Positions 600-64,000 of a DNA stretch of 64,000 nt are shown in pieces. A model generated the notes under the pieces. The model was not told where the DNA came from. It did no database searches and saw only the letters and a program-made list of their open reading frames with translations. Position numbers and translations under genes: made by a program. The stretch comes from Candidatus Saccharibacteria bacterium QS_5_54_17 (GTDB taxonomy: Bacteria > Patescibacteriota > Saccharimonadia > QS-5-54-17). The stretch spans positions 11,900-75,899 of the forward strand of contig PXOU01000018.1 of NCBI GenBank assembly GCA_003022365.1, read 5' to 3'. How positions within the stretch are numbered: the stretch's first letter is position 1; each line of letters starts with the position of its first letter.

Positions 600-1330
600 T
601 AGGCCGCGTAGGAACAGGGAGCAGGAAGCAAGTAGCAAGTAAAAAAATGCAAATCCTCTCTTGTCATTCCGGCCGCCGAGCCGGAATCCATTAATCCGAC
701 ATGATCTAAAAAGCACTTTTTATACAAAATTCACGATCGTGAACTATACATAAAAGATAAGCGCAATTGCAAGGAACGTCCTTGCAAGATTAAAATCGCT
801 ACTAAAAGCGCTACTTGGCGCAAAATTGCAAGGACGTTCCTTGCAAAAATAGATCCTGAAATAAATTCAGGATGACAAAAAGTGTGTCATTCCGAACTTG
901 GTTCGGAATCGAGTCTGAAACAGATCCTGAAATAAATTCAGGATGACAATAGGGGAAGATCCTGAAACAAGCCTGCCTACCGGCAAGGTAGGTTCAGGAT
1001 GACATTTCTTTTTTGTCACCCGCTTTGTCATTCCGCCCCCGAGCCGGAATCCATTAAGCCGATACGGTATATCTTAAAAACCTGACTGCCGCACACAGAT
1101 TATACTCGAGGCTCAAAACCGTGCGCATAGCAGCACGCAGACAGCAGACAGTAAACGGCAGACAGGGAGCAGGGAGCGGGCAGCAGGAAGCAGGGAGTAA
1201 GAAGTAAGCAGATCTTAAGAGGGGTGGCGAAAAATTGTCATCCTGAACTTGTTTCAGGATCGGTTTCAGGATCTATTTCAGACTCGATTCCGAACCAAGT
1301 TCGGAATGACAAAGAGGGGAGGTCGCTGGC
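600..1330. repeat. Mosaic intergenic repeat array (hairpin modules GTCATYC…GRATGAC, twin-palindrome element 764-848, AG-rich trailer 600-650)
   Basis: Direct sequence comparison with 17 other arrays in the window. Confidence 0.8.
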
Positions 1331-2648: not shown

Positions 2649-3170
2649 CCCACAGGAATAAGAAGTAAGCAGTAAGAAGCAAGAAGTAAGTTTCGGAATC
2701 GGTTCTGAAATAGATCCTGAAACTGATCCCGGATCGGGGTCCGGGATGACATCTTCAGGATGATGGTTATTTTTCGTCACCTTCTTTGTCATTCCGGCCA
2801 CCGAGCCGGAATCCATGAACCCGATATGATCCAGAAACAGATTCTGAAACAAGCCTGCCTACCGGCAAGGCAGGTTCAGGATGACATTTCTTTTTCGCCA
2901 CCCTCTCTGTCATTCCGAACTTGGTTCGGAATCTCATTCTGCAACAGAGAAACAGATCCCGGATCGGAGTCCGGGATGACATCTTCAGGTTCAGGATGAC
3001 GCCTTTAGAGCCCGTCCTGAACTTGTTTCAGGGATGACAATTCAGGAATGATGTTCAGCCCGGTTTTTGTTGCCGGGTTTTGATAATGATTCCGGGTGCT
3101 CGCGCACAAACACCTCCTTGTTGTTTACTGCATCCGAGGTGTTCGATATGTCGTGTCACTATACGCAAGT
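2649..3170. repeat. Mosaic intergenic repeat array; the last ~110 bp (3055-3166) is a module also found at 22040-22164
   Basis: Sequence identity to other arrays. Confidence 0.8.
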
Positions 3171-9722: not shown

Positions 9723-10150
9723 AGGGGTAGACGGAGAACGGGGAGTAAGAAGCAAGCAGTAAGGAGTAAGTGGGAGAGGTGACACGCAATTGCAAGGACC
9801 GTCCTTGCAATGGGAGAGTTTTCTCTCTCTTTGTCATTCCGAATTTAGTTCGGAATCGTTGCTGCAATAGATCCTGAAATAAATTCAGGATGACAATAGG
9901 GGAATATCCTGAAACAAGCCTGCCTGCCGGCAGGCAGGTTCAGGATGACATCTTTTTTTGCCACCCCCTCTGTCATTCCGAAGACGTCATCCCGGACCCC
10001 GCCCGCACTGAGCAAGGTCGAAGTGATCCGGGATCAGTTCGGAATCGGCTCTGAGCCTGCAACAGATCCTGAAACAAGTTCAGGATGACATCCTTAGGAG
10101 GACATGATGTTCAATAGCCCCGAGACTATACGCTTCTTGTGAGATCTTTT
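9723..10150. repeat. Mosaic intergenic repeat array
   Basis: AG-rich trailer 9723-9775, TTGCAAGGACCGTCCTTGCAA palindrome 9787-9815, hairpin modules, and a partial TGTTCAATA…GACTATACG module 10096-10133. Confidence 0.8.
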
Positions 10151-10207
10151 CCGGCGTGATGTAATAGGCAGGATTACTAGTTAAATAAGAAACCGGGAGA
10201 ATAGCCG

Positions 10208-11470
10208 ATGCAACACACAGTCAGGGAAATTACATTAGATAACGGTGCTAAGGGGCTGTTGCTGCACGTCCCCGGGGTAGATGTGGTCCGGATGCTGGTC
10301 GAATTCCGGGCCGGATTTGACCTGGGCGATTGGGGCAAGTACGAGCTACCCCACGTCACCGAGCATTTGATGTTTACCAATCAATCCTACCCGGAACCGA
10401 ACCAGTTTTCCCGGGAAGTCGAGAAAAACGGGGCCTTTTGTAACGCCACCACCTCGGATACCAGCCTGGCCTACGAATATGAATGCGCCACCTTCGAAGC
10501 CGAGCGAATCGCCGGGCTGATCGGCATCCAGATCACCGAGCCGACATTTCCCGCCCGTGAACTGACCAGTGAGTTAAACAACGTGGCCGATGAACTGGAT
10601 AACGATATATCGGATCCCGGCCCGGCGGTCAACAACAATTTACAGGCCGCCGCCTATGACATGCCCGACTTCCGCCGCCGGCGTGATCAACTCTCGGCCA
10701 TTACGGAAGACGATGTGCGGGAGTGGTACCGGCAAACCCACACCTCGGATAATATGCGGTTTTTGGTAGCCGGCGATGTCGATTTTGACACGGAGGTTTT
10801 ACCGGGTTTGAACGTCGATTTACCCCGGGACGAGCGGTTGGCGGTGCCCTACGTGGCGAGCACCAAACTGGAGGAGCCGGTGGTGGAGTATCGTGACATG
10901 CCCCAGATCTATTACCGGTTTACCTCGCGTTTATCCCAGTCCTATTCCTACCGGGAGCTGATAGCCGCCCGCCTCATGAGCGACGCCCTGTCAGCCGGAT
11001 TTTCCGCCACCCTGTTCGGCGAAGCCCGCGACCGGGGCTTAGTCTACGACCTGGCTATGCGGGTGGGCCGGGATACACACACTACTGAATGGAACTTCGG
11101 GGGACCGGTGTCGCCCGCCCACGCCGACACCTATTTCCAGCTGGCCGCCGATAAGATACGCCAAGCCCAGAACGGTGACATATCCGGGGAGCAGTTCGAC
11201 CGGATGAAACGCTTGTTGCGCGGAAACCGGGCCCGTAAGTACCAGACGCCGGGGAGTTTATTGAGCTACTACGATATGTTTTTGGAGGACGACCACTACG
11301 AAGCGTTTGAGGAATTCTACCGGTTGCTGGATGACATAACCCTCGATGAAGCCGCCCGGGCGTTCGCCGGATTATTCCAGGAAAATGTCTGGGGCGCGAG
11401 TTTCCTGGGCAACGTGGACGAGACGGCCGCGGCGCGGTACCGGGATATTGTCTCGCCCCTGTGGGATTGA
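10208..11470 (+). CDS. M16-family (pitrilysin/insulinase-like) zinc peptidase
   Basis: Inverted zinc motif HVTEH. GGGAGA SD. Confidence 0.8.
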   Translation: MQHTVREITLDNGAKGLLLHVPGVDVVRMLVEFRAGFDLGDWGKYELPHVTEHLMFTNQSYPEPNQFSREVEKNGAFCNATTSDTSLAYEYECATFEAERIAGLIGIQITEPTFPARELTSELNNVADELDNDISDPGPAVNNNLQAAAYDMPDFRRRRDQLSAITEDDVREWYRQTHTSDNMRFLVAGDVDFDTEVLPGLNVDLPRDERLAVPYVASTKLEEPVVEYRDMPQIYYRFTSRLSQSYSYRELIAARLMSDALSAGFSATLFGEARDRGLVYDLAMRVGRDTHTTEWNFGGPVSPAHADTYFQLAADKIRQAQNGDISGEQFDRMKRLLRGNRARKYQTPGSLLSYYDMFLEDDHYEAFEEFYRLLDDITLDEAARAFAGLFQENVWGASFLGNVDETAAARYRDIVSPLWD

Positions 11471-11497
11471 GGTTCGGTTAAGTGAGCGGAGGTTAGC

Positions 11498-12304
11498 GTG
11501 CGGTTCAATGTAGGCTCCCTTTCCACGGCCAAAGACGGGTCCCGGACCAACGAAGACACCGTATTGGTCTGGGAAGAGGCGGGGCTGTTCGGGGTGTTCG
11601 ACGGCATCGGCGGCGGTGGTGACGGCGACGTGGCCAGCTCGGTGGCTGCCCAGGCGGTGACGTCCTTTTACGCCCGTGAGTCGGGCGAGGTGGCGGCGGA
11701 CTCCTCCCAAGCTGACGGCCTGGCTCGCCAGGCGCTGGTGGAAGCCGGGCGGGCGCTGGCTCGGCGAGCAGCCCAAGCGCCATCGGTGAGTGCCGAGATG
11801 GGTACCACCGCCACCATCGGCTGTGTGCATCACGAAGAAGACGGTTTTGGCTTAACCTACGCGCATGTGGGGGATTCCGGGCTACTCGTCTACCGGCGCG
11901 ACCAGGATCACCTGACTTTCCTTACCGAAGATGAAGCCCAGGAGAATGTACTGGACAACGCCCTGACTGCCCGGGAGGAGGTGCTCCACGGTGTGCGCCA
12001 ATACGCTCGCGTAACGCTCCAGCCGGGCGACCGGCTGGTCTTTTTCACTGACGGCATCAGCGGCGACACTCCTGACCAACGGCTCAGCCGGGCGGAATAC
12101 CGGCAGGCGATCGTCGGGGTGTCGCCGCAGCAGGCGGCCCGGGCGTTGTCGGAGACCAGCCGCAAATCTGACGACACCTCGGTTGTGGTGGTGGATCCGC
12201 TGGTGGATGAGGCGAACAGGAAGCAGGAAGTAAGAAGCAAGCGGGAGACGGGGAGTAGACAGCAGACGGTAGACAGTAGACAGGGAACGGGGAACAGGGA
12301 GTAA
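11498..12304 (+). CDS. PP2C-family Ser/Thr protein phosphatase
   Basis: FDGIGGGGDGD metal-binding motif. GTG start with GGAGG SD. The last ~25 codons are translated from the AG-rich repeat module. Confidence 0.85.
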   Translation: MRFNVGSLSTAKDGSRTNEDTVLVWEEAGLFGVFDGIGGGGDGDVASSVAAQAVTSFYARESGEVAADSSQADGLARQALVEAGRALARRAAQAPSVSAEMGTTATIGCVHHEEDGFGLTYAHVGDSGLLVYRRDQDHLTFLTEDEAQENVLDNALTAREEVLHGVRQYARVTLQPGDRLVFFTDGISGDTPDQRLSRAEYRQAIVGVSPQQAARALSETSRKSDDTSVVVVDPLVDEANRKQEVRSKRETGSRQQTVDSRQGTGNRE

Positions 12305-12500
12305 GGAGTAAGAAGCAAGAAGCAAGTGAAAAAATGCAAAACCTCTATGTCATTCCGAGCCTCCTCCGTCATTCTGAACTTGTTTCAGAATCAGCATTGA
12401 AATAGATCCTGAAATAAATTCAGGATGACAATAGGGGAGGATCCTGAAATAAATTCAGGATGACATCTTCAGGAATGACATCTTTAGGAATGATACTTCG
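12305..12500. repeat. Mosaic intergenic repeat array
   Basis: AAAATGCAAAACCTCT-TGTCATTCC module plus TCCTGAA hairpins. Confidence 0.8.
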
Positions 12501-12539
12501 TCCGCGCATTGACACATCCTCATCAACATGCGTATTTAA

Positions 12540-12568
12540 TTGACAAATCATAAAAATTTTGCTAGAGT
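12540..12568 (+). promoter_or_regulatory. Sigma70-type promoter TTGACA-N17-TAGAGT
   Basis: Exact 17-nt spacing. About 90 nt upstream of ATG 12657. Confidence 0.55.
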
Positions 12569-12656
12569 ATTTTTAGCCTAGTCCCGGTATTCCCCGGGCC
12601 TATGCGCCCACATCAGCCTTTATTAATTTTATACAAACTCCCAAGAGGTATATCAG

Positions 12657-14309
12657 ATGGCACAAGAAACACCCGAATTCGATCCCAATCAGGAAGCGGT
12701 CCAGGACCCGGCGTCCGGGGAGCCAGCGGAAACGGAATCGAATAATGAGGGAAAACCGGATGAGAACCGGCAACCGGAGGACGCCCGGGACTCGAATGAC
12801 GAAAAGGAATCGGCAGAGTCGGAAGTAGAAACGCCGGAATCCGGCAATGAGCACTTTCGGGGTTTGCGGGGTTCGCTCCAGCGCGGCAGGCGCGCCAGGC
12901 GCGGCAAATCCCATGCATCAGCGGAAAACCAAGACGGGGAAGCCGGAGCGGAAGCTTCCGGAAACGAACCGGAGGAACCGGATGATGCGGGAGAACCGGA
13001 TGAGGACCCACAACCGGAGGATGAGCAGGATTCAGATGACAAGGAGGGATCGGAACCAAATCAAGATCCGTACGTAATCAGTGCAGTAGCGGGAGCGCCC
13101 GGCGACGGTGAAGCGGTCCAGCAACCGGACGCTACCGGGGCGGAAGTGAATGATGCCGCCGGCGAAGCACAGCAGAATCAAGATCAGCAGGAACAGAATC
13201 AAAATCAGGCGGAACTGAGCCAAGCGGACCGCAATCGCCGCGACTTCCTCCGCCAGATGAAGGACACATCCAAGGAAGCCGTCCTGGGGGCAACGACGAA
13301 AGCCCAGATGTGGTGGCAGCGAGACCCGGAAAAACCTGGTAAGGCCAAATACGGTGTCGTCCTCGGGGCGATCGCCGTCACCGCCACCTCCAAGTACCTT
13401 CCTGAGGCAATCGACTCTATACAAGGCGGGGAGGCAACCGCCGGTTCGCCGGTAGGAGAGAGCGGCGGCACCCCGGTGAACCCCGCCGAGTCCGCGCCCG
13501 AGGCGGCTCCCTATGCCGCTGGCGGCCAAGTCGAGGGGACGCTCGAAAAAGTAGCCCCAGAGGCCCAGGCTCGTTTCGGCGAACTGGCCGGTGATCGGGT
13601 GGACATTACTATACCCAAGGGCAGTAACGTCTGGGATCAACTGGAACTGGCGGTTGACCAGCGGGCCGATGTGAGCTTTGAACGCAAGCAGGAGATAGTC
13701 GATGCCATGGTTGATCAGATGCGAGTCGAGTACCCGGGGCAGGATCTGAGCCACGTACACCCCGGTGATTCTTTCAGTGTCGAGCTGCCGGGTGGGGAGG
13801 CAACGGCCGACTCGTCATCGGTAGGAGAGAGCAGTAGCGCGCCGGTGGACTCTGCCGAATCCGCGTCTGATGCGGCTTCCGAAACTGCTGGGGGTCAAGC
13901 TAGCGAAACGGCCTCGATCGAGACCACTCCCGGCACTGCTGGAGGCCAAGCTGGCGAAACGGCCTCGCTGGATACTGCTCCCGACGCCGCAGAAGGCCAA
14001 GCCGGCCACACGACCGCGTCCGAAGCCATTGGAAGCCAGGTCGCCCAAACGGCCGGGGAAGTATCCCCGGAAGCTCAGGCTCGCTTCGGTGAACTGGCCG
14101 GTGAACGGGTGGATATCACCATCCCCGAGGACAGTAATCTGCGGGATCAACTGGAAATGGCGGTCGACCAGCGCACCGGCGTGGTGGACTTTGCCCGCAA
14201 GCAGGAAATAGTGGACGCCATGGTCGATCAGCTTCGAACCGAATACCCCAGCCAGAATCTGGACTACGCCCACACCGGCGATTCCTTCAGCATCCACCTG
14301 CCCGCCTAA
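12657..14309 (+). CDS. Hypothetical acidic low-complexity protein with two ~85-aa C-terminal repeats (AQARFGELAG…VDAMVDQ…)
   Basis: AAGAGG SD. Long ORF with an internal duplicated domain and one hydrophobic segment. Confidence 0.6.
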   Translation: MAQETPEFDPNQEAVQDPASGEPAETESNNEGKPDENRQPEDARDSNDEKESAESEVETPESGNEHFRGLRGSLQRGRRARRGKSHASAENQDGEAGAEASGNEPEEPDDAGEPDEDPQPEDEQDSDDKEGSEPNQDPYVISAVAGAPGDGEAVQQPDATGAEVNDAAGEAQQNQDQQEQNQNQAELSQADRNRRDFLRQMKDTSKEAVLGATTKAQMWWQRDPEKPGKAKYGVVLGAIAVTATSKYLPEAIDSIQGGEATAGSPVGESGGTPVNPAESAPEAAPYAAGGQVEGTLEKVAPEAQARFGELAGDRVDITIPKGSNVWDQLELAVDQRADVSFERKQEIVDAMVDQMRVEYPGQDLSHVHPGDSFSVELPGGEATADSSSVGESSSAPVDSAESASDAASETAGGQASETASIETTPGTAGGQAGETASLDTAPDAAEGQAGHTTASEAIGSQVAQTAGEVSPEAQARFGELAGERVDITIPEDSNLRDQLEMAVDQRTGVVDFARKQEIVDAMVDQLRTEYPSQNLDYAHTGDSFSIHLPA

Positions 14310-14560
14310 TGCAGGAGACAAGGAACAAGGAACAGGGAGCAAGGAGCAAGGAGCAAGGAACAAGGAGTAAATGGAGAAATACAAACCCTCTCTGTCATTC
14401 CGAGCCCCCTCCGTCATTCTGAACTTGTTTCAGAATCAGCATTGAAATAGATCCTGAAATAAATTCAGGATGACATCTTCAGAGCCTGTCCTGAACTTGT
14501 TTCAGGAATGACATCTTCAGAGTCTGTTGCCCTTCACTCCCTGTCTCCTGTCTACTGATT
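14310..14560. repeat. Mosaic intergenic repeat array
   Basis: The (CAAGGAG)n trailer directly follows the stop codon. Confidence 0.8.
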
Positions 14561-14608
14561 CAATAGCCACAACTGCTTTGACACAATCTATAGTATATTT
14601 CTAAATGA

Positions 14609-14637
14609 TTGACACTAGAACAAAAAAATGGTAGTGT
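14609..14637 (+). promoter_or_regulatory. Sigma70-type promoter TTGACA-N17-TAGTGT
   Basis: Same architecture as the promoter at 12540. Confidence 0.45.
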
Positions 14638-14643
14638 AAAAAC

Positions 14644-14795
14644 ATCTGATTGGTGTGGGGTGGAAATCACGCCGATGGCCGGTCCGGAACCGGGCCATCT
14701 GAGGTGAGGGACCCGGGCCAATACGGGGTGCCTTGACAAGCCGCGTACGTGCATTCGAGATGCACGCCGCGTCTTTGCCCGCCCGGGCAAGGACG
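14644..14795 (+). promoter_or_regulatory. Structured GC-rich leader RNA; candidate riboswitch (ydaO/c-di-AMP-like motifs GGGGTGGAAATC, CCGGAACCG, GGGACCCG, ACGGGGTGCC)
   Basis: Nested hairpins GATGGCC…GGCCATC. Sits between the promoter and the terminator, 170 nt upstream of the CDS. Confidence 0.4.
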
Positions 14796-14802
14796 TTTTT
14801 TT
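14770..14802 (+). terminator. Intrinsic terminator (12-bp stem CGTCTTTGCCCG/CGGGCAAGGACG plus T7)
   Basis: Perfect GC-rich hairpin followed by TTTTTTT. Confidence 0.7.
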
Positions 14803-14968
14803 ATGTGTTCGAAATACCAGAGAGATCGATTACCAACCACGCTTGTCACGTGCTCGCCCTGACCCAAGGGAAAACTCACCGGCGGGGAGCATGGTGCTCC
14901 GCACTCGAGCGGGGCAGCCTGCTCCCTGCCCGGGGAGTGCAGCTAGCCTCTAAAGGAGGTGAAAGCGG

Positions 14969-17041: not shown

Positions 17042-17456
17042 CTCGTTCGCTTAAGAGGGGCACTACCATGTAACCGTTTTGCCTCTCTCGAGGCCCCCAT
17101 CCCGGGTACGGGGCGGCGCCGAGGCAAGCGGTTATTGGTAATGCTCTCCCTTTTTGTCGTCTACCTCAGGGTAGACGAATGAGTGTTCGAGCACTAGGAG
17201 GCGCAGAAGCGCGACGTATCGAATGGCTCAGCCATTCCGATTCATTCCGCGGCACGCTGCCCCTCCACTCCTCTCGAATACAGGTACGCGGCTTGAGAGG
17301 CGCCTCCCCAGGCGCACGTTGACAAAACAACCCTCGAGCGCTCCTCAAACACCAGCTCGAGGCTCTTTCGAGCACCAGAAGACGCATACGCATTTGCAAT
17401 TGATGGTAATCCAAACGGTAATCCCATGTAATCCAATAGAAGGAAAGGAGAGATAT

Positions 17457-19136: not shown

Positions 19137-19139
19137 CGC

Positions 19140-19745
19140 GCACCTAACCCGGGGGGTGAGCTTCATCTCTCACCCCTCCGCGCTCCCTGGGGGTACCACA
19201 GGAGTACCCCCAGGTGCCAACCAAGAGGAAGCAAGTGGGGGTCAGTAGACAGCAGACAGTAGACAGGGGAAAAACAACGGGAAGCAAGGAGTAAGAAGTA
19301 AGAAGCAAGTGGCAGTCAGTAGACAGGAGACAGCAGACAGGGGAAAAAGAACGGGAAGTAAGCAGTAAGTAAGAGGCGCGACACACAATTACAAGGAACG
19401 TCCTTGCAATATTAAAAATCACTACCAAAAGCGCTACTTGGCGCAAAATTGCAAGGACGTTCCTTGCAAAAGGAGGGTTTTTTCTCTTTTTGTCACTGGG
19501 AATTTAGTTCGGAATCGTTTCTACAGCAGATCCTGGAATAGATCCTGAAATAAATTCAGGATGACAGTAGGAATAGATCCTGAAACAAGCCTGCCTGCCG
19601 GCAGGCAGGTTCAGGATGACATTTTCCGTTACCCCCCCTCTGTCATTCCGAAGACGTCATCCCGGACCCCGCCTGCACTGAGTAAGGTCGAAGTGATCCG
19701 GGATCAGTTCGGAATCTGATTCCGCAACAGGGGAACGATCACGGA
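19140..19745. repeat. Mosaic intergenic repeat array (two tandem AG-rich trailers, twin-palindrome element 19385-19471)
   Basis: Sequence identity to other arrays. Confidence 0.8.
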
Positions 19746-19788
19746 TCTGGGCGGGGCGACCCCTGTCAATCGCTCTACCTTCAATCAC

Positions 19789-22170: not shown

Positions 22171-22206
22171 AACCGGGTAGCAGTAATCCTTTATACTGCC
22201 CGTGTA

Positions 22207-23301
22207 ATGCATGAGATAACCAAAGAACTCCACGCGCTGCTCGGGCGCATCGAAGAAGCCAGCCGCCAGCTGGGCATCGAAACCAAGCAACGCCGGATCT
22301 CGGAAATGGAGCGTTCCATGCAGTCGCCGGAATTCTGGCAGGATCCCGAGACGGCGGCGGCGACCTCCAAGCAACACGCCCATTTGAAAAAACAGGTGGA
22401 CTCCTGGCAACAGTTGCGCCAAGACGCCCGGGCGGCGCTGGATCTGGCCCGGATGGAAGATCACCAGTTGCTGGAGGAGCTAAAGGAGCAATATACCGAC
22501 ATTAAATCCCGGTTCGAGGAAAAGGAATTGGAAGTCAAACTCTCCGGAGTCTACGACGGCCATGACGCCATCCTCCACATCCATAGCGGCACCGGCGGAA
22601 CCGACGCCCAGGACTGGGCGCGGATGCTGGAACGGATGTACCTGCGATTCGCCGACCGGAGCCAGCTGCAGGCGGAAATTTTGAGCCGGTCCCAAGGCGA
22701 GGAAGCCGGTATTAAGAGCGCCATTGTCCGACTGGAAGGCTCCTATGCCTACGGGCGGCTGAAAGGTGAGCACGGCGTGCACCGGCTGGTGAGAAAAAGC
22801 CCCTTTAATTCCGATAATTTGCGCCAGACCAGTTTCGCCCTGGTGGAGGTGACCCCCGACATCCCCGAACCGGAAACTGATGACATTAATGAAAATGATG
22901 TAACCATCGATACCTATCGGGCCAGCGGCAAAGGTGGCCAGGGGGTAAACACCACCGACTCGGCCGTCCGGATCACCCACCAACCCACCGGCATCATGGT
23001 GGCTATTCAGAACGAACGTTCCCAACTGCACAACAAGCAAACCGCCTGGAAGATCCTCCGCGCCCGCCTGGCCCGGCTCCGGGAGGAACAGCGGGCGGAA
23101 ACCATCGACGAACTCCGAGGGTCCCATTTAACCGAGCAGTGGGGGAGCCAGATCCGCAATTACGTACTCCATCCCTATACCTTAGTCAAGGATACCCGGA
23201 CCGGAGTGGAAACTGCCCAAGCCGAAGCAGTCCTGGAAGGCGAGCTGGATGATTTCATCGACGCCTACTTAACCCAGCAGATCGGAGTCAGTAGGCAGTA
23301 G
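22207..23301 (+). CDS. prfB: Peptide chain release factor 2
   Basis: SPF and GGQ motifs. Uninterrupted ORF with no +1 frameshift site. Confidence 0.9.
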   Translation: MHEITKELHALLGRIEEASRQLGIETKQRRISEMERSMQSPEFWQDPETAAATSKQHAHLKKQVDSWQQLRQDARAALDLARMEDHQLLEELKEQYTDIKSRFEEKELEVKLSGVYDGHDAILHIHSGTGGTDAQDWARMLERMYLRFADRSQLQAEILSRSQGEEAGIKSAIVRLEGSYAYGRLKGEHGVHRLVRKSPFNSDNLRQTSFALVEVTPDIPEPETDDINENDVTIDTYRASGKGGQGVNTTDSAVRITHQPTGIMVAIQNERSQLHNKQTAWKILRARLARLREEQRAETIDELRGSHLTEQWGSQIRNYVLHPYTLVKDTRTGVETAQAEAVLEGELDDFIDAYLTQQIGVSRQ

Positions 23302-23640
23302 ACAGGGAACAAGGAACAGGGAACAAGGAGCAGGGAGCAAGAAGTAAGTGACACGCAATTGCAAGGAACGTCCTTGCAATATTAAAAATCGTTACCAAAA
23401 GCGCTACTTGGCGCGAAATTGCAAGGACGTTCCTTGCAAAAGGAGGGCCTCCTCTCTTTTTGTCACTGCGAACTTGGTTCGGAATCGTTTCTGCAAAAAA
23501 TCCCGGCATAGATCCTGAAACAAGCCTGCCTGCCGGCAGGCAGGTTCAGGATGACAATAGGGGAAGATCCTGAAACAAGTTCAGGATGACACTTTTCCCC
23601 TCTCTGTCATTCCGGCCGGCGAGCCGGAATCCTTTAACGT
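23302..23640. repeat. Mosaic intergenic repeat array (twin-palindrome element 23355-23441)
   Basis: Sequence identity. Confidence 0.8.
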
Positions 23641-23656
23641 GTGTTAAGATAAACCC

Positions 23657-29491: not shown

Positions 29492-29866
29492 GAAGCAAGT
29501 AGCAAGAAGCAGGGAGCAGCAAGAAGTAAGTGGAAAGAAGCAAGTTTCGGAATCAGCTTTGAAACAGATCCTGAAACAAGTTCAGGATGACATCTCTTTT
29601 TCGTTACCCCCTCTGTCATTCCGAACTTGGTTCGGAATCTAATTCTGTAATACGGAAACTTATCCCGGATCACTTCGACCTTGTCCGCCCCAGGCGGACA
29701 GGCTCAGTGCGGGCGGGGTCCATAGCCTGTCCTGAATTCATTTCAGGAATGACATCTTCAGAGCCTGTCCTGAACTTGTTTCAGGAATGACAGGTTCAGA
29801 GCCTGTTGCTTCTCACCCCCTGTCTACCGTCTACTGTCTGCTGATTACTGTCTTTTGTTCCCCGCG
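29492..29866. repeat. Mosaic intergenic repeat array; 29800-29866 is a reverse-oriented trailer that supplies the last ~15 codons of pyrG
   Basis: Sequence identity. Confidence 0.8.
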
Positions 29867-33059: not shown

Positions 33060-33523
33060 GAAAGCGTGGCGAGTAGCGCATATAGTCTCCCGGCGGCGGG
33101 ATTAGGAAGCAAGCAAAAAACAGAAAGTAGACGGCGAGTGAGAAACAGCAGGCTCTGAATATGTCATTCCTGAAACAAGTTCAGGACAGGCTCTGAATTT
33201 ATTTCAGGATCGGTTTCAGAATCATCCTTTCTTGTCATCCTGAACTTGGTTCAGGATCTGTTTTAAAACCATATCGGGTTAATGGATTCCGGCTCGACGG
33301 CCGGAATGACAAAGGGGCTGTGCAACTTTTGCAAGGACCGTCCTTGCAATTTTGCGCCGAGCAGCGCTTTTGGTAGCGATTTTTAATTTTGCAAGGACGG
33401 TCCTTGCAATTGTCGGTCCGGGATCGTTTTTCTGTTGCAGAATGAGATTCCGAAACAAGTTCGGAATGACAAAGAGGAAAAACAAGGAGGTGTTCAATAA
33501 GCAGGGAGACTATACGCCCGTAT
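33060..33523. repeat. Mosaic intergenic repeat array (inverted twin-palindrome element 33326-33412)
   Basis: Sequence identity. Confidence 0.8.
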
Positions 33524-33949: not shown

Positions 33950-34345
33950 CCTCCAGCAGTAGGCAGACAGCAGACAGGGAAAAGGGAACAAGAAGCAAGA
34001 AGCAGGGAGCAGGGAGCAAGCAGTAAGAAGTAAGAAGCAAGAAGTAAAAGTCTGGTAAATCCACCTTCGGCGCCGCGATTCACACTCTTGTCATCCTGAA
34101 TTTATTTCAGGATCAGATTCCGAACCAAGTTCGGAATGACAAATAGGGTAACCTCGTAATAACAAACTTTCTCTATGTCATCCTGAAGACGTCATCCCGG
34201 ACCCCGCCGGCACTGAGCAAGGTCGAAGTGATCCGGGATCGTTTCCTTGTTGCAGAATGAGATTCCGAAACAGGTTCGGAATGACGGAGGAGGCTCGGAA
34301 TGACAAAGAGGGTTTGCATTTTCTCGCTTACTCCCTACTTCTTAC
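33950..34345. repeat. Mosaic intergenic repeat array
   Basis: AG-rich trailer 33950-34070, hairpin modules, and a reverse-oriented trailer 34300-34345. Confidence 0.8.
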
Positions 34346-34400
34346 TGCTTACTTCTGGTTCTATGCCCGGTGTGCTGAGGTGTACTACAATGCGTAGGTA

Positions 34401-37379: not shown

Positions 37380-37815
37380 GACAGAAACTTATTGAACAGC
37401 TTCTCGCTGTCCCTCTTTGTCATTCCGAATTTAGTTCGGAATCGTTTCTGCAACAGGGAAACGATCCCGGACCGGTAATTGCAAGGACCGTCCTTGCAAA
37501 ATTAAAAATCGCTACCAAAAGCGCTACTCGGCGCAAAATTGCAAGGACGGTCCTTGCAAGAGTTGCACAGTACCTCCGTCATTCCGGCCCCCGAGCCCCG
37601 AATCCATTAACCGATATGTTCCTGAAATCAAGCCTGCAATAGATCCTGAAACAAGTTCAGGACAGGCTATGACCCCGATCCGGGATCAGTTTCAGAATCT
37701 GTTTTATAACTGATTCCGAAACAAGTTCGGAATGACAGAGAGGCTTTGCATTTTTTTACTTGCTTCTTGCTTCTTACTGCTTACTTCCTATTCCCGCTGC
37801 CGGGAGACTATACGG
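37380..37815. repeat. Mosaic intergenic repeat array (twin-palindrome element 37476-37560)
   Basis: Sequence identity. Confidence 0.8.
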
Positions 37816-39287: not shown

Positions 39288-39600
39288 CGAAATAGGCGGC
39301 AGACAGGAAGAAGAAGCAAGGAGTAAGAAGTAGGGAGTAAGTGAGAAAATGCGAAGCCTCTTTGCCATTCCGAGCCCCCTCTGTCATTCCGAACTTGGTT
39401 CGGAATCGGCTGATACTGAAACAGATCCTGAAATAAATTCAGGATGACAAGGGAGGAGGATCCTGAAACAAGTTCAGGATGACAGTTCGGACCCACCTCT
39501 GAACCTGAAACGGATCCTGAAATTCAGGATGACACTCCTCTTTGTCATTCCGGCCCCCGTCCGCACTGAGCCATGTCGAAGTGAGCCCCGAATCCAGGGG
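39288..39600. repeat. Mosaic intergenic repeat array
   Basis: Sequence identity. Confidence 0.8.
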
Positions 39601-45250: not shown

Positions 45251-46108
45251 ATGCATTCCGAGCAGAGAGGCGAAGGGGGAGCAGCAGATAATTATTCCGA
45301 TATGGCATCGACTGCCGAATACGCACCTGACTCGGCCGTTTTTTTCGAGCGCATTGCCGATCAGTCCTGGATGAGTGGGGAGGTTACCGAGAAATCCACG
45401 GCCCGCTTGAAGAGTGAACTCGACCAACAAGCCCGCCCGGCATTGGATGAATGGAGCTGGTTGTGGACACACCATTTGTTGCAATTGACCGATTATATGC
45501 GGCAGGCGGCTCGTCAAGAACCGAATATCGAAAACCTGGGAGTGTCAGATCCGGATACCCACCCGGAGATGCATCAGGAAATATCGGAAACCTCGCATAT
45601 GCCGGAAGGTATGAACGTCGATCATGAGTTGTTGCAACAGATTTTTGCAGTGGTGAGCGGGCACGTAATGGGGGAAGCGGCCCATTCACCCCGGACCACT
45701 GAGCCTGAGCAAGTGAGGGATAGGTGGTCGGAGGTGATGGGCGTTAACGGGGATAACCAAGCACCAAATCAAGCACATGCGAGCTCAGATCAGCTGGATA
45801 TGTACGCCCATCTTGAGACCACCTTCGATTCCATGCAGGTGATGCTGAATGCCCGGAACTTGATTATTGATCGGATCAGCGACATGAAAGCCCAGCTGGA
45901 CATGCAACCCGTCCAACAGGCCCGGCGGGACGAACTGTTCGACAAGGCGGAACGTCTGGCCCGGCACATCACCACGTCGTCAGAAGGTGAATCGCCTGCC
46001 AACGATGTCGACGAGACGTTTGTTGCCATCGCCCGGGACACCATCCGGCTTATACACGACAACAGTGTGGCGCGCCAGCACCGGCTCCGGCAAACCAACC
46101 CTGCCTGA
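45251..46108 (+). CDS. Hypothetical acidic protein
   Basis: AAAAGGAG SD. Follows the repeat protein on the same strand. Confidence 0.55.
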   Translation: MHSEQRGEGGAADNYSDMASTAEYAPDSAVFFERIADQSWMSGEVTEKSTARLKSELDQQARPALDEWSWLWTHHLLQLTDYMRQAARQEPNIENLGVSDPDTHPEMHQEISETSHMPEGMNVDHELLQQIFAVVSGHVMGEAAHSPRTTEPEQVRDRWSEVMGVNGDNQAPNQAHASSDQLDMYAHLETTFDSMQVMLNARNLIIDRISDMKAQLDMQPVQQARRDELFDKAERLARHITTSSEGESPANDVDETFVAIARDTIRLIHDNSVARQHRLRQTNPA

Positions 46109-46555
46109 GGAACAAGAAGCAAGCAGTAAGAAGCAAGAAGTAAGGAGCAAGCGGGGGTCAGTAGACAGGAGACGGTAGACAGTAGACAGGGAACAAAAAA
46201 CAAGAAGCAGGAAGTAAGGAGGAAGAAGTAAGTAGGAAATGCAAAGCCTCTTTGTCATTCCGGCCCCCGCCCGCACTGAGCAAGGTCGAAGTGAGCCCCG
46301 AATCCATGAAGCCGATATGGTTTAGAAACTGATCCTGAAACAAGTTCAGGATGACAAGAGAGGAAGATCCTGAAATAAATTCAGGATGACAATTTAGGGG
46401 TGACACTCCTCTCCGTCATTCCGAACTTGGTTCGGAATCGTTTCTACAACTGATCCTGAAACCGATCCTGAAATAAATTCAGAGCCTGTCCTGAACTTGT
46501 TTCAGGAATGACATCTTCAGAGCCTGTTGTTTCTCACCCCCTGTCGGACGAGGAT
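46109..46555. repeat. Mosaic intergenic repeat array
   Basis: Sequence identity. Confidence 0.8.
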
Positions 46556-47689: not shown

Positions 47690-48060
47690 ACGATTATAGC
47701 AGGCGGGAACAGGGAACAGGGAACAGGGAGCAAGGAGCAAGGAGCAAGGAGCAAGAAGTAAGCAGTAAGCAGGAAAATACAAACCTCCTCTGTCATTCTG
47801 AACTTGGTTCAGAATCTAATTATGCAATCCGGAAACGGATCCCGAATCGACAATTGCAAGGACCGTCCCTGCAATACATAAATGCCGCATAAGCTTTTGT
47901 TTAGCAAATCTTGCAAGGACGGTCCTTGCAATTGCGTGTCACCTCTCACGCTTGCTTCTTACTGCTTACTCCTTGCTTCTTGTTCCTGTTATCCTGAAGA
48001 CGTCATCCCGGACTCCGATCCGGGATCCGTTTCAGGATCCTTTATAAGAACCACGGAAAA
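47690..48060. repeat. Mosaic intergenic repeat array (variant twin-palindrome element 47861-47933)
   Basis: Sequence identity. Confidence 0.8.
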
Positions 48061-56502: not shown

Positions 56503-56880
56503 CCCGGTAGAGGGGGGTAAGCAGGTAACAGTAGGCGGTAGACAGCAGACAGCAGACAGGGAAAAAGGAACAAGTAGCAGGGAGCAAGGAGTAAGGAGTA
56601 AGCGGATCTTAAGAGGAGTGGCGAAAAAATGTCATCCTGAATTTATTTCAGGATCTGTTTTAGACTCAGAGCGATTCCGAAACTGATCCCGGATCGGAGT
56701 CCGGGATGACGTCTTCGGAATGACAAAGAGGGTAACAAAAAAAAGAAGTGCCCTCCTAAAGATGTCATCCTGAACTTGTTTCAGGATCTATTTAAAACCA
56801 TATCGGCTTAATGGATGCCGGCTCGGCGGCCGGAATGACAAAGAGGGGAGACAGGGAGTAAGGAGCAAGCAGCAGGGAGT
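56503..56880. repeat. Mosaic intergenic repeat array
   Basis: The trailer module directly follows the ftsQ stop. Confidence 0.8.
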
Positions 56881-61329: not shown

Positions 61330-61725
61330 TACATAAGGGCTTTCGCTTCTATGAAAACCGGACGAAATGTCATTCCTGAAATAGATTAAGAGTAGGCTTT
61401 GAATCTGTCATCCTGAACTTGGTTCAGGATCTGTTTCAAAATTATCCTCTCTTGTCATCCTGAACCTGCCTGCCGGCAGGCAGGCCGGAATGACAACGAG
61501 AGTGACGAAAAAGAAGTGTCATCCTGAACTTGTTTCAGGATCTATTTCAATGCTGATTCTGAAACAAGTTCAGAATGACGGAGGAGGCTAAGAATAACAA
61601 AGAGGTTTTGCGTTTTTTATCACTTACTTCCTGCTTCTTACTTCTTGCTTCCTGTTCCCTCTTCCCTGTCTACCGTCTACCGTCTCCTGTCTACTGACTC
61701 CCACTTGCTGCTTACTTCTTACTTC
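61330..61725. repeat. Mosaic intergenic repeat array; a reverse-oriented trailer 61600-61725 follows the topA stop
   Basis: Sequence identity. Confidence 0.8.
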
Positions 61726-64000
61726 TTACTGCTTGCTTTTTGTTCCTTGGTTGGGTCCCGAACGCGAAGCGCTCCCCGACTTCTTGGATGTCTTGGATTT
61801 CTTTTTGACGTTGTCCAGGATTTCTTGTGCCTGCGCCCGGTCCAGATCTTGGGGAGTGATGTTCTTGGGTATTTTGGCGTTTTTGGAGCCGTTGGTTACG
61901 TAGGGTCCGAACCGGCCGTTGAGCACTTTGATGCCGCCCAGATCAGCGATGGTGCGTTTAGCTTTTTGCTCCCGCTGCTGGGTCAAGGCGGTTCGGGCGG
62001 TGGTTTGGGAGACACTGAACGGGTCGTCGCCTTCGGGGATGGCCGCGAAAGTATCCCCGCTTTTGACATACGGTCCGTAACGGCCGTAGTTGGCATAAAT
62101 CTCCGATCCGTCTTCCTCGGTTCCCACATAGCGGGGAAGTTGCAATAGGCGCAACGCCTCCTCAAAGGTAACGGAATGGATCTTTTCCCCGTTTGGGATG
62201 GGGGCGAATTTCGGTTTCTGCTCGTCTTCGGGGCGCCCCAGCTGCAACATGGGTCCGTACTTGCCCATCCGGGCGATGACGGGCCGGCCGGTATCCGGGT
62301 CGGTCCCTAGCTCCCGGGCGCCGCTGGCTTGCTCGCGGGAAAGCGATCCCGCTGCTTCGACTTTTTCATGGAAGGGGCCATAAAAGTCGGCAATCATGCG
62401 GTTCCAGGCTTCCTTGCCGCGGGCGACGCGGTCGAATGCCTCTTCCACTTCTTTGGTAAAGTCGTAATCCACGATGTCATCGAACTGCTTGGTCAAAAAG
62501 TCGTTTACCAGCAAGGCGATCTGGGTCGGGAATAGTTTATTCTTATCCTGCCCGTACATGATGGTTTCCTCGGCTTCGGTGACATCACTTCCGCCGCTCT
62601 CTAGTGACAGCGTGACGACGTCGCGTTTGCTTCCCGGGGTATTCCCCTTTTCGACATATCCCCGGTCCTGGATGGTCGAAATCGTCGGGGCGTAGGTGGA
62701 GGGCCGGCCGATGCCCATGGCTTCCAGTTTCCGTACCAAGGCCGCTTCACTGTAGCGGGTGGGCGGGCGTTTGAAGGTTTGCCGTGCCTGGACGGCATTC
62801 CGGGTTAGCGCCTCGCCGGCCTCGACCGTCGGCAGCACGATGTCGGTGATGGCCGTATCCTGGTGCGCTTTTAGCCAGCCCGGGAAGGTAATGACTTCTC
62901 CTTTAGCTTTGAACGGACTGCTAAGGCTCGGGGACTGAATGGTGATGGCGGTTTTATTGAGGGTGGCGGCGGCCATCTGGCTGGCCAGGGTTCGGCCGCG
63001 GATGAGTTCGTACAAGCGTTGCTCGCCCTTATCATCGGAGACTGACTGGGCGGCGACATCGGTGGGCCGGATAGCTTCATGGGCTTCCTGGGCGTCGGAG
63101 CGGCTCTTATAGCTACGGTATTGATGATATTCGGCCCCGAAGGTTTGCTCGACCACGCGCTTGATCTGTCCCAGCGCGTTACCCGAAAGCGTTACCGAGT
63201 CAGTCCGCATATAAGTGATGTGCCCGGCTTCATAGAGGCGCTGTGCCAACGTCATGGTTTGCTTGACGCTGTATCCCAGTTTCCGGGAGGCGACTTGTTG
63301 TAAGGTGGACGTCGTAAACGGCGCGGCCGGGTTGCGCGTGCCGGGTTTTTCCGTCACGTCTCCGACCGTGAATTGCGCATCCGCCATGGACTCCAGTAAC
63401 TGGCGCGCCGTGGATGCATCCCGGACGGTTTCGGCCAGTTCCGCCGGCAGTTCTTCCCCGCTCTGGGTACTGAATGTTGCCGATATTTTGAAGGTGCTCT
63501 CAGGCTCGAAATCCTCGATCTCCCGTTCGCGCTCCACAATCAACCGGACGGCTACCGATTGCACCCTTCCGGCGCTTAACCCCGGCTGTACTTTCCTCCA
63601 TAAGAGCGGTGATATTTCATATCCCACCAACCGGTCCAGCACCCGCCGGGCTTGTTGGGTGTCGACCAGGTTCTGGTCAATGCTGCGGGGGTTCCGCATG
63701 GCTTCGGTTATGGCCTGGGGGGTAATTTCGTGGAAGGTGATGCGTTTGGTCGATTGTTGACTGAGTTCCAGCACTTGCATTAAGTGCCAGGCGATGGCTT
63801 CCCCTTCCCGGTCCTCATCGGTTGCCAGCCAGACCGTGTCCGCCTTTTGGGCCGCTTGCTTGAGTTTGCGTATCTGGGGCTGTTTGTTGTCGGGGACGAT
63901 GTATTGGGGTTCGAATTGGTTCTGGGTGTCGATGGCCATTTCCTTGGAGGGTAGATCCCGTACGTGGCCGTAACTGGAGAGTACGGTATACTCCTCGCCC
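61726..64000 (-). CDS. topA: DNA topoisomerase I (N-terminus beyond the window end)
   Basis: Toprim DREGEAI. Active-site region RLYEAGHITYMRTDS. GHVRDLP is visible at 63940-64000. Lys-rich C-terminal tail. Confidence 0.9.
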   Translation of the reverse strand, partial: GEEYTVLSSYGHVRDLPSKEMAIDTQNQFEPQYIVPDNKQPQIRKLKQAAQKADTVWLATDEDREGEAIAWHLMQVLELSQQSTKRITFHEITPQAITEAMRNPRSIDQNLVDTQQARRVLDRLVGYEISPLLWRKVQPGLSAGRVQSVAVRLIVEREREIEDFEPESTFKISATFSTQSGEELPAELAETVRDASTARQLLESMADAQFTVGDVTEKPGTRNPAAPFTTSTLQQVASRKLGYSVKQTMTLAQRLYEAGHITYMRTDSVTLSGNALGQIKRVVEQTFGAEYHQYRSYKSRSDAQEAHEAIRPTDVAAQSVSDDKGEQRLYELIRGRTLASQMAAATLNKTAITIQSPSLSSPFKAKGEVITFPGWLKAHQDTAITDIVLPTVEAGEALTRNAVQARQTFKRPPTRYSEAALVRKLEAMGIGRPSTYAPTISTIQDRGYVEKGNTPGSKRDVVTLSLESGGSDVTEAEETIMYGQDKNKLFPTQIALLVNDFLTKQFDDIVDYDFTKEVEEAFDRVARGKEAWNRMIADFYGPFHEKVEAAGSLSREQASGARELGTDPDTGRPVIARMGKYGPMLQLGRPEDEQKPKFAPIPNGEKIHSVTFEEALRLLQLPRYVGTEEDGSEIYANYGRYGPYVKSGDTFAAIPEGDDPFSVSQTTARTALTQQREQKAKRTIADLGGIKVLNGRFGPYVTNGSKNAKIPKNITPQDLDRAQAQEILDNVKKKSKTSKKSGSASRSGPNQGTKSKQ

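Follow-up and report, generated by a model that had tools for sequence, protein, structure and literature searches.

Purine-rich heptanucleotide tandem arrays at gene boundaries in a Saccharibacteria bacterium

The gene for a 550-aa hypothetical protein (12657-14309; NCBI BRC19_02615) of Candidatus Saccharibacteria bacterium QS_5_54_17, a halophile from a salt habitat, ends in a TAA stop, and at +4 nt from this stop begins an array of purine-rich heptamers reading AGGAGAC, AAGGAAC, AAGGAAC, AGGGAGC, AAGGAGC, AAGGAGC, AAGGAAC and AAGGAGT. TRF assigned the array a period of 7 and 7.6 copies; folded alone it reached -0.7 kcal/mol (z = +0.4), i.e. no structure, and a scan of its own sequence gave no stop triplet. 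A conserved tail, AAATGGAGAAATACAAACCCTCTCTGTCATTCC, leads into GTCAT-headed hairpin repeats, and the intergenic island is closed by an inverted partner array, which abuts a TTGACA promoter-like box and whose orthologous arm in the close relative L129 has 10 units. All features are collected in Table 1, with positions in the window, the whole 64,000 nt stretch of DNA analysed.

Table 1. The array after gene 12657-14309 with its island, and the other arrays of the window.
Feature	Position	Strand	Remark
Array 17 nt after ftsA stop	616..636	+	
Internal array of ftsA-ftsZ island, sense-upstream of ftsZ	1143..1205	+	Breaks orientation rule
Array 12 nt after ftsZ stop	2660..2687	+	
Array after murD-like stop	9740..9767	+	Array-like sequence from the stop itself
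Array overlapping PP2C 3' end	12211..12323	+	Codes last ~26 aa and stop
TAA stop of 550-aa hypothetical gene	14307..14309	+	C-terminus ...SIHLPA* identical in relatives L129 and L130
Array of 8 purine-rich heptamers	14313..14368	+	86% purine; unstructured folded alone
Conserved junction tail leading into first hairpin repeat	14369..14401	+	7 copies in window vs 0 expected
GTCAT-headed REPIN/MITE-like palindromes, island interior	14393..14513 (14393-14437, 14450-14475, 14488-14513)		Hairpin modules
Inverted partner array, core 14536-14556 (AGTAGAC AGGAGAC AGGGAGT)	14526..14558	-	Pairs with array 14313..14368, foldback z = -4.9
Two ~74-nt heptamer cycles, 108 nt after stop of first PKD-domain gene	19244..19377	+	Behind native hairpins
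Array overlapping prfB stop	23290..23352	+	
Array starting within ctpA stop codon	29490..29537	+	Left arm of ctpA/pyrG foldback
Array overlapping pyrG 3' end	29801..29842	-	~13-aa array-coded tail; right arm of ctpA/pyrG foldback
Array 74 nt after rpmA (L27) stop	33126..33153	+	
Array ~51 nt upstream of response-regulator gene (-), non-coding strand	33961..34045	+	Left foldback arm between divergent genes
Array ~41 nt upstream of LPG-synthase gene (+), non-coding strand	34330..34360	-	Right arm of 33961 foldback
Array ~55 nt upstream of gene 37858 (+), non-coding strand	37762..37803	-	Abuts promoter region
Array 24 nt after histidine-kinase stop	39311..39338	+	
Two-cycle array starting inside stop codon of gene 45251-46108	46107..46238	+	
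Short array 13 nt after sugar dehydrogenase (GSDH) stop	46522..46542	-	
Array abutting extended -10 promoter (TGcTATAAT) of GSDH gene (-), non-coding strand	47705..47766	+	
Partner array closing 47695-47990 foldback	47954..47981	-	z = -9.2
Array 14 nt after ftsQ stop	56516..56599	+	
Second, internal array of ftsQ island	56846..56880	+	
Two-cycle array overlapping topA stop	61619..61734	-	

A regex census of runs of at least three consecutive units gave 29 runs in the window against 1.75 in shuffles, far above chance. The module described in the original prediction is real, with its array at 14313-14368 and its tail at 14369-14401. Of these runs 23, all intergenic, were counted as family members within the 64-kb window, while runs inside genes are chance-level three-unit runs outside the family. 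TRF reported period 7 (also 14, 21 and 28) at every array. The units follow a preferred 5' to 3' order, AGTAGAC-type, AGGGAAC, AGGGAGC/AAGGAGC, AAGAAGC/T and AAGT, and the ordered units build higher-order cycles of ~74 nt; transitions between unit types were counted as D to N 7 vs N to D 3, D to G 5 vs G to D 0, and N to G 8 vs G to N 4. The tail motif was counted at up to 3 mismatches (Table 1). Array plus tail is one among at least five junction types, and the way in which array, tail and hairpin are joined is preserved whichever way they are oriented. We assign the feature to the long simple-sequence repeat or STRR-type class, as a family of purine-rich heptanucleotide tandem arrays that is dispersed over the window and presumably genome-wide.

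Candidate-phyla-radiation bacteria usually have very compact genomes; the coding share of this window is only 81%. The arrays lie at the outer edges of intergenic islands filled with repeats; inside are small GTCAT-headed hairpin repeats with 68 heads, none of them within genes. These hairpins are short imperfect palindromes with a conserved head, whereas the heptamer arrays are not palindromic. The sharing of one unit family by many loci, along with the conserved array-tail junction, fits mobile dispersal at least as well as local slippage.

The position of the arrays relative to genes is far from random. Counted over the window and three close relatives, 47 of 54 arrays have their purine strand pointing away from the nearest ORF (p = 2e-8, a value that overstates independence, as orthologous arrays were counted in several genomes); 35 of these lie in sense after a stop and 12 in antisense upstream of genes, while 7 of the 54 break the rule. 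For 13 of the 23 arrays in the window the start falls within -100 to +30 nt of a stop; 5000 random placements gave 2.8 on average and never more than 10. The predicted sense placement after stops is accordingly strong: each of the 14 genes named has a sense-oriented array at its stop or directly behind it, and the C-termini of PP2C and PyrG are indeed translated from arrays. The census of orientation also shows that arrays are not found after stops only: the prediction had missed the inverted pairs, the limitation to long spacers, and the arrays beside or facing the 5' ends of opposite-strand genes at 14536-14556(-), 33961-34045(+), 34330-34360(-), 37762-37803(-), 47705-47766(+) and 47954-47981(-). 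Two array pairs sit between divergent genes. None of the nine gene ends with spacers of 80-220 nt has an array; the arrays are confined to long, repeat-filled spacers. Replication as the cause of the orientation was rejected, since the window is one replichore (cumulative GC skew rises throughout) and its 7 minus-strand arrays nevertheless follow gene boundaries.

The two strands of the arrays differ strongly in stop density, 5.4 per 100 nt in sense vs 0.23 in antisense. With stops frequent in sense and nearly absent in antisense, the sense orientation alone is harmless when an array overruns a stop. One may ask if the antisense strand is the relevant one, its C/U-rich, G-poor and unstructured complement, carried by any transcript that enters an ORF from outside, being a putative Rho loading site, or the array a template-strand roadblock; either would insulate genes from incoming or antisense transcription originating in the repeat islands. 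The rule applies to 5' and 3' gene ends alike, pyrimidines make up about 80% of the antisense strand, and the upstream arrays abut promoters of leaderless-type genes, all as such insulation would have it. Cyanobacteria obey the same rule, however, and to our knowledge lack Rho, and the count of promoter-like sequences in the islands was not above that of shuffles; we give the insulation idea little credence.

In the close relatives L005, L129 and L130 the array is kept at 11 of 13 orthologous gene ends, and units, lengths, copy numbers, tails and interior modules differ. Fourfold degenerate sites of these relatives are 83-86% identical, and the arrays change much faster than synonymous sites. 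The array after gene 12657-14309, at +4 nt from the stop here, lies at +78 nt in two close relatives with identical C-terminus, and array-coded C-terminal tails range from 0 to 26 aa. An assembly artefact was rejected: the ENA contig matches without a difference over 7.2 kb, a segment with two arrays in it, and three further assemblies carry arrays too.

In more distant relatives the heptamer arrays are short and belong to other unit families (TGGAGTA in L006, AGGGTAA/AGCGTAA in L008), and purine-then-pyrimidine hairpins begin at the stop codon (z = -3.7 to -4.9). A one-off invasion absent from relatives was rejected, given the arrays in the L006 and L008 spacers. Orthologous outgroup spacers are short, and L131, with about 69% PyrG identity, has ordinary terminators instead. 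A Phycisphaeraceae (Planctomycetes) MAG shows the identical layout of stop, array, inverted array and start (z = -7.5), and the cyanobacterial loci L003 and L004 share GGGAACA/GGAGACA units. The array-junction pattern was found at only 3 loci in genome contigs, none of which belongs to the source genome, and the tail pattern had 0 matches in JGI metagenomes. Arrays of (AAGAAGY)n and (AAGGAGC)n were further seen at gene junctions in 22 viral contigs of 32-66% GC, hence the unit type is not lineage-specific.

The original prediction had proposed that the module might be a post-stop ribosome-capture or termination/processing element. As a functional part of the mRNA, its Shine-Dalgarno-like AAGGAG/GGAGG hexamers would retain ribosomes that are terminating, and its TAA/TAG triplets would end read-through whatever the frame. 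Besides the 35 of 54 arrays found in sense after stops, such capture of ribosomes can draw on an approximately 7-fold enrichment of GGAG in the arrays (3.4 vs 0.5 per 100 nt), on stop triplets being about 2-fold enriched on the sense strand, and on the host's use of GGAGG-type sites for some genes. The Shine-Dalgarno-like content is real in this respect, but many arrays are of AAGAAG/AGTAGAC type with few such matches, and the claim of TAG/TAA in all three frames fails, being true for only 7 of 23 arrays; the array after gene 12657-14309 has no internal stop at all. Further, 12 of 54 arrays are upstream of a gene on its non-coding strand and therefore outside that gene's 3' UTR, some pairs lie between divergent genes, and the short spacers are empty. 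The shift of stop distance from +4 to +78 nt and the differences in unit content and copy number between close genomes also speak against a ribosome-capture or stop-based termination device, as do the GGGAATC repeats of Xanthomonas, which obey the same position rule without Shine-Dalgarno motifs or stops (PMC4692102). We consider this explanation very improbable. A Shine-Dalgarno site or small ORF starting from the tail ATG was likewise rejected: 3 of 9 tails lack the ATG, and the copy after gene 12657-14309 is in another frame. The next real genes start 200-800 nt away. Any role in termination or processing, which the arrays may have, would depend on the pairing of long foldbacks or on purine tracts prone to R-loops, and ribosome capture would have no part in it.

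A selfish repeat favouring gene ends, the other suggestion made at the time, comes closer than ribosome capture. The arrays might be terminal segments of non-autonomous mobile mosaic elements (MITE/BIME/foldback-like) that spread into a compact genome's short spacers and have no cellular function. The orientation rule would then follow from the arrays being at the outer ends, and the position at stops from tiny ancestral spacers and the purging of insertions that break ORFs or promoters. It agrees with this that arrays are confined to islands crowded with REPIN/MITE-like hairpins, that the array-tail-hairpin junction is conserved in both orientations, that ordered units imply homologous copies, and that inverted arrays close islands into foldbacks; so do the short orthologous spacers of outgroups and the skewed stop densities, by which only a sense overrun is harmless. 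On the other hand, no transposase was found apart from one IS30-like gene, no RAYT (Y1 transposase) is among the window's 46 genes, and no target-site duplications were recognised. At least five different tails are joined to arrays, the island ends are not symmetric, with different tails at the two ends, and the arrays stay at orthologous sites while the interiors change. Moreover, the outgroups and the Planctomycetes MAG carry arrays without hairpin modules, while the hairpin element is found in at least 120 unrelated contigs without arrays, and Xanthomonas and Nostoc repeats obey the same rule with no link to mobile elements (PMC4692102). We hold the mobile origin to be unlikely, though it is the most serious of the alternatives.

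The unit family, repeated at many loci, differs from lineage to lineage (AAGGAGC/AAGAAGC here, TGGAGTA in L006, AGGGTAA/AGCGTAA in L008), as might be expected if arrays were multi-site platforms for a heptamer-specific nucleic-acid-binding factor, such as a CsrA-like protein, S1 or a nucleoid or termination protein, co-evolving with the units. CsrA binds GGA motifs and CsrB has CAGGAUG repeats; CAGGAAG, CAAGGAG and similar units look like CsrA sites. Binding of S1, Csp or CsrA has been proposed for TAACTGA heptamers (MacGregor 2015, PMC4679880). Against a platform stand the lack of a candidate protein within the window, the heterogeneity of unit types inside single arrays, and the upstream non-coding-strand arrays, which are outside the mRNA of the adjacent gene. 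It seems a poor candidate. A known RNA family or tRNA-like element was rejected too: Rfam 15 gave no match at gathering score over the window and only chance-level matches at E <= 1 over 14250-15000, and no tRNAs were found. An intrinsic terminator did not fit the arrays within 9500-29490 either, where the terminator scan gave no stem with U-tract on arrays and matches in native hairpins or other modules. A literature search on the hairpin sequence and on Saccharibacteria repeats yielded nothing relevant.

Arrays by themselves do not fold. Roughly every second array is matched by an inverted partner at the opposite island edge, and in all four islands folded the paired arrays form the outer closing stem (z = -4.9, -9.2, -3.1 and -4.7). 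Foldback pairing is not the whole story, because 11 of 23 arrays have no partner. The explanation we prefer, with a probability of roughly 0.45, is that the arrays are slippage-prone heptamer repeats which form the arms of intergenic foldbacks and may be orientation-dependent, putative transcript boundaries. Replication slippage, together with recombination between arrays, would lengthen, shorten and rearrange the runs of units at a rate far above that of point substitution. The stretch that separates an array from its ORF may be expendable, and for this reason arrays would end flush with or over the stop codon; new stops and short C-terminal tails would be by-products of arrays overrunning stops. 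Hairpin modules would be gained and lost between the two arms.

The weakest step of this explanation is that the arrays would act on nucleic acid and not on ribosomes. For transcripts leaving an ORF the non-template strand would be purine-rich from the point where ribosomes exit, which might lead to slowing or blockage of the R-loop type. Where a partner array is present, the read-through RNA could fold into a long stem, and blockage and stem together may set transcript boundaries at either end of a gene.

A bolder version, which we think rather doubtful, is that purine heptamer arrays form a putative class of transcription-boundary element that is general, specific in orientation and independent of hairpins, stalling RNA polymerase via R-loop-prone purine RNA. 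Arrays would start at the site of ribosome release from the mRNA or at the exit of divergent transcription from a promoter, paired arrays would lock the spacer into a long stem, and the order of unit types would set the register in which that stem pairs. If true, such a class would explain the purine-strand placement shared by Xanthomonas, Nostoc, the Phycisphaeraceae MAG and Saccharibacteria.

Heptamers are the commonest long simple-sequence repeats in bacteria, and their strict rule of ORF position and strand was described earlier and never explained. What is new here is that the rule holds in a candidate-phyla-radiation bacterium, that arrays serve as arms of long foldbacks colonised by hairpin repeats, and that they have rewritten protein C-termini among close relatives. 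The three close lineages, along with outgroups bearing other unit families, offer a clean comparative test between mutational debris, mobile DNA and boundary signals. In practical terms, the arrays account for C-terminal extensions that look odd, for false antisense ORF calls and for contig breaks in these MAGs.

Among known systems, the closest are the heptamers of Xanthomonas (GGGAATC) and Nostoc PCC 7120 (GGGGA(C/T)T), which follow the same position and strand rule, are transcribed and show no link to mobile elements (Rehm et al. 2015, PMC4692102). Like these, the arrays are 7-nt tandem units at many intergenic loci, single or as inverted pairs, kept in close relatives with variation in length and sequence and next to genes of no particular functional class. 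Unlike them, they are A/G-mixed and mostly without G-quadruplex potential, as a canonical motif (G3+N1-7 four times) occurs in only 1 of 23 arrays (47705), and this counts out the sole mechanism proposed so far. They also differ by several ordered unit types, ~74-nt cycles, flanking hairpin-repeat islands and a small-genome candidate-phyla-radiation host, and pairs between divergent genes, under-represented in the study by Rehm et al., do occur here.

Dispersed intergenic tandem heptanucleotides are also known as cyanobacterial STRRs (Calothrix PCC 7601, as cited in PMC4692102) and among the heptamer-rich long simple-sequence repeats of Mrazek et al. 2007 (as related in PMC4679880), where, according to these secondary accounts, units are sporadic and lineage-specific and slippage is the proposed source. 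The present arrays differ from STRRs in phylum and unit families. We know of no description of ordered multi-unit structure or foldback islands for STRRs. [quoted passage not shown] In enterobacteria and pseudomonads these sequences form extragenic mosaic islands of few motif types, often after stops or between convergent genes, with alternating small palindromes, and REPs are species-specific. Of the marks of a MITE or foldback transposon, inverted arrays close all four folded islands; the two ends carry different tails, no target duplication was recognised, and no partner transposase was seen. As to possible action, and not family membership, a purine-rich non-template strand blocks transcription via R-loops in an orientation-dependent manner in vitro, as found with T7 RNA polymerase on G-rich homopurine runs (Belotserkovskii et al., PMC3561996); the purine strand is likewise the non-template strand for transcripts leaving the adjacent ORF here, although the arrays are A/G-mixed with a pyrimidine every 7 nt. 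The arrays are a new example of an already known kind of bacterial repeat, and not a demonstrated ribosome-trapping signal.

The stop codon of the 550-aa gene (TAA at 14307-14309) is followed by eight heptamers at 14313-14368 and then by the tail AAATGGAGAAATACAAACCCTCTCTGTCATTCC, which runs to 14401. Tandem Repeats Finder detected period-7 arrays window-wide, with superperiods of 14, 21 and 28 and a 74-nt higher-order repeat at 19228-19369. A census with the pattern [AG][AG][GTC]N[AG][AG][CT], requiring at least three consecutive units, returned 29 runs in the window against 1.75 in shuffles, and 23 of the 29 were counted as intergenic members of one family. The units have a preferred order (AGTAGAC-type, AGGGAAC, AGGGAGC/AAGGAGC, AAGAAGC/T, AAGT), and it is because this order can restart that the 74-nt cycle arises. 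The tail occurs in seven copies in the window (0 expected), and arrays are also joined to at least four other sequences. Stop triplets number 5.4 per 100 nt on the purine strand and 0.23 on the complement; stops in all three frames, as claimed in the original prediction, are found in only 7/23 arrays, and the flagged array has none. No array carries an intrinsic-terminator signature (terminator scan of 9500-29490) or matches Rfam, and a G4 motif is present in only one of the 23. A further short repeat, CGTATAGTCTCCCGGCRGCGGGAWTAGGAAG, stands before some arrays or after some stops.

For 13/23 arrays the start falls in the interval from -100 to +30 nt around a stop; in 5000 random placements the count averaged 2.8 and never exceeded 10. 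The post-stop location originally proposed thus stands for these arrays, and all 14 genes then named do have an array at or just past the stop in sense orientation, PP2C and PyrG having array-coded C-termini as stated; what was missed are six arrays which adjoin or face gene 5' ends on the non-coding strand. Several of these abut leaderless-type promoters, as at the GSDH gene (ccTGcTATAAT, 7 nt, ATG). Pooling the window with three syntenic loci of close relatives, L005 and L129 (both JGI 3300046054) and L130 (JGI 3300046060), we found the 5' end of the purine strand toward the nearer ORF in 47 of 54 intergenic arrays. The full set of 54 divides into 35 post-stop sense, 12 upstream antisense, 5 upstream sense and 2 post-stop antisense. 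It should be noted that the binomial p-value of 2e-8 is inflated, as orthologous arrays are not independent. The arrays form a family of heptamer SSRs that obey an ORF-facing strand rule. Orientation set by replication was rejected, as GC skew climbs window-wide, yet seven arrays lie on the minus strand. At least 13 genes have a -10-like TAnnnT box 12-15 nt before the start codon without an SD, which suggests leaderless mRNAs; GGAGG-type SD sites are present at other genes.

Pfam scans mapped 46 genes, among them ftsA, ftsZ, an EcoRII/Dcm island, secA, a Mur ligase, an M16 peptidase, PP2C, the 550-aa gene, two PKD proteins, prfB, ftsEX, an IS30-like transposase, ctpA, pyrG(-), L27, response regulators, xseAB, a histidine kinase, recO, glyS, the sugar dehydrogenase (GSDH)(-), mraZ through ftsQ, a TrwB-like ATPase(-) and topA(-). 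PyrG homologues place the source genome among Saccharimonadales-like bacteria, and the 550-aa protein matches, at 100% identity, hypothetical protein BRC19_02615, encoded on a 172-kb contig of Candidatus Saccharibacteria bacterium QS_5_54_17. The division/cell-wall cluster is split, ftsA-ftsZ, followed by secA and the Mur ligase, lying apart from mraZ-mraW-ftsL-ftsI-mraY-ftsW-murG-ftsQ. The low-GC (41%) restriction-modification island between ftsZ and secA encodes an EcoRII C-terminal domain protein and a Dcm-type C5 methylase, and is lacking in L129 and L130. Part of ENA contig ERZ27230158:k119_85533 is identical to window 50447-57691; the IS30-like transposase (HTH_38 + rve) coincides in position with the end of the ENA short-read contig otherwise matching the window. 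Long in-frame tandem repeats occur within genes, with period 51 in the 550-aa protein and period 90 in a HEAT-like protein, and both PKD-domain proteins have CAG/CAA glutamine runs.

The coding share of the window is only 81%, which is low for this group. Arrays are confined to long spacers packed with GTCAT-headed hairpin repeats (the window has 68 heads, all of them outside genes), and arrays are missing from all nine gene ends whose spacer measures 80-220 nt. A single array is unstructured (-0.7 kcal/mol, z = +0.4). Five of these repeat-filled islands bear an inverted array pair, one at each edge, and in all four that were folded the arrays form the closing stem; arrays frequently pair into foldbacks.

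Coordinates of features in the window
Feature	Position (strand)	Remark
Foldback island	14307-14565	z = -4.9
Foldback island	47695-47990	z = -9.2
Foldback island	33955-34365	z = -3.1
Foldback island	29486-29848	z = -4.7
Arrays at gene 5' ends	14536-14556(-), 33961-34045(+), 34330-34360(-), 37762-37803(-), 47705-47766(+), 47954-47981(-)	non-coding strand
-10-like TAnnnT boxes, examples	47685-47700, 34385-34400, 37844-37857	
Double-hairpin element, examples	14413-14437, 14450-14475, 14488-14513	also metagenome loci L009-L128
TTGCAAGGACNGTCCTTGCAA module, examples	9786-9806, 23360-23440, 37479-37560, 47830-47935	
CGTATAGTCTCCCGGCRGCGGGAWTAGGAAG repeat	33080-33110 (+), 37790-37830 (-), near 33490 and 27240	
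Promoter-like site	14578-14599	TTGACA...TATATT
Promoter-like site	14609-14637	TTGACA...TAGTGT
Intrinsic terminator	14769-14802	strong
ftsA-ftsZ	1-2648	window start
Restriction-modification island	3067-5228	
mraZ-ftsQ block	48278-56502	
IS30-like transposase	27278-28168 (-)	
In-frame tandem repeats within genes	13879-14006, 44255-44587, 18940-19001, 21430-21509	

Among the island repeats, a double-hairpin element of about 75 nt (TGTCAT-stem-loop-stem-GATC ... GAT-stem-loop-stem-ATGACA) matched no Rfam family and nothing in the literature, and looks REPIN/MITE-like. Its exact 26-mer TGTCATCCTGAANTTNTTTCAGGATC was recovered from at least 120 metagenome contigs, whose GC content spans 23-71%; an inverted partner accompanies 66/121 copies, and the stem of this partner varies, with compensatory changes. 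The palindromic module TTGCAAGGACNGTCCTTGCAA has 14 copies in the window, often paired about 60 nt apart around AAAAGCGCTAC and frequently followed by a terminator-like GGAGGG..CCTCTCTTTTTGTCA hairpin. The region 14578-14802 lacks a convincing ORF, has no match in Rfam and may be a small RNA; its TTGACA box is conserved in L129.

The 4-fold degenerate sites of three close lineages are 83-86% identical to the window, and arrays are kept at 11/13 orthologous gene ends, with differences in unit content, copy number, tail type and interior hairpin modules. At the flagged gene the C-terminus is ...SIHLPA-TAA in the window, L129 and L130, while the gap from stop to array is a unique 78-nt stretch in L129/L130 and the window array is at +4. 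In the partner array, which precedes the downstream TTGACA box, L129 has 10 units and the window 3. Array-coded tails are 0, 7 or 26 aa in PP2C and about 4 or 13 aa in PyrG. These differences show that arrays and islands outpace synonymous sites by far and that stop proximity is unconserved: array turnover is very quick, and the coding effects (stop capture, variable C-terminal tails) are incidental. We infer that the variation is driven by slippage and recombination. The DNA lying between an array and its ORF would be expendable, so that arrays become flush with stops, and hairpin modules would be gained or lost between the foldback arms.

Two more distant relatives, L006 (83% PyrG identity, 51% identity at 4-fold sites) and L008 (77% PyrG identity), seemed array-free with the initial detector, but short heptamer arrays are present in their spacers, built from other unit families (TGGAGTA/CATACTC in L006; AGGGTAA, AGCGTAA and CTCAACC in L008). 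Three of these spacers each fold into one long hairpin that starts at the stop codon (z = -3.7 to -4.9); its 5' arm is purine and its 3' arm pyrimidine. Arrays are absent from L131 (69% identity), where the terminators are of the ordinary kind. A Phycisphaeraceae MAG (CAZYPK010000118.1, 4452-4712) reads TGA, (GGGAACA/GGAGACA)n, spacer, inverted array, 21 nt, ATG, with a stem of ~57 bp (z = -7.5), the same layout despite the unrelated phylum; two cyanobacteria bear similar units. Further, (AAGAAGC)n, (AAGAAGT)n and (AAGGAGC)n stand at gene junctions in 22 IMG/VR viral contigs (L133-L154) of 32-66% GC. In some, such as L148, the last unit doubles as the SD of the following gene, and in others, such as L144, the array is the 5' arm of a terminator hairpin.

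The main rival explanation is that the arrays are merely the outer segments of non-autonomous mosaic elements. In its favour are the conserved junction of array and tail and a unit family spread genome-wide; against it speak the asymmetric ends, the stable array positions, the outgroup arrays that lack hairpin modules and the recurrence of the rule across phyla. The ribosome capture first proposed leaves upstream antisense copies and the absence from short spacers unexplained, and it fits poorly with an unconserved stop distance and the same rule in repeats without SD motifs or stops. Most speculatively, the ORF-facing arrays might mark transcript boundaries: purine-rich RNA would begin exactly where ribosomes leave, favouring R-loop-type slowing, the partner array would contribute a long stem, and the ordered unit types would set the pairing register. 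[quoted passage not shown]

The feature is real and striking, and best placed in the heptameric long-SSR class, any function being putative. Heptamers are the commonest long SSRs, with polymerase slippage as proposed source, according to the summary of Mrazek et al. 2007 in PMC4679880, and MacGregor 2015 describes TAACTGA heptamers immediately upstream of start codons (PMC4679880). The GGGAATC repeats of Xanthomonas and GGGGA(C/T)T repeats of Nostoc (Rehm et al. 2015, PMC4692102) form single arrays or inverted pairs and follow the same strand and position rule relative to ORFs as found here; they are mostly transcribed, no function was found, and in Xanthomonas 83% keep the same gene context between two species with varying lengths. 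The G-quadruplex proposal of that study is inapplicable to the window, as its units are A/G-mixed. Relative to the known heptameric long SSRs, the present family adds a new phylum, non-G4 units, a higher-order unit order and foldback islands containing REPIN-like hairpins.
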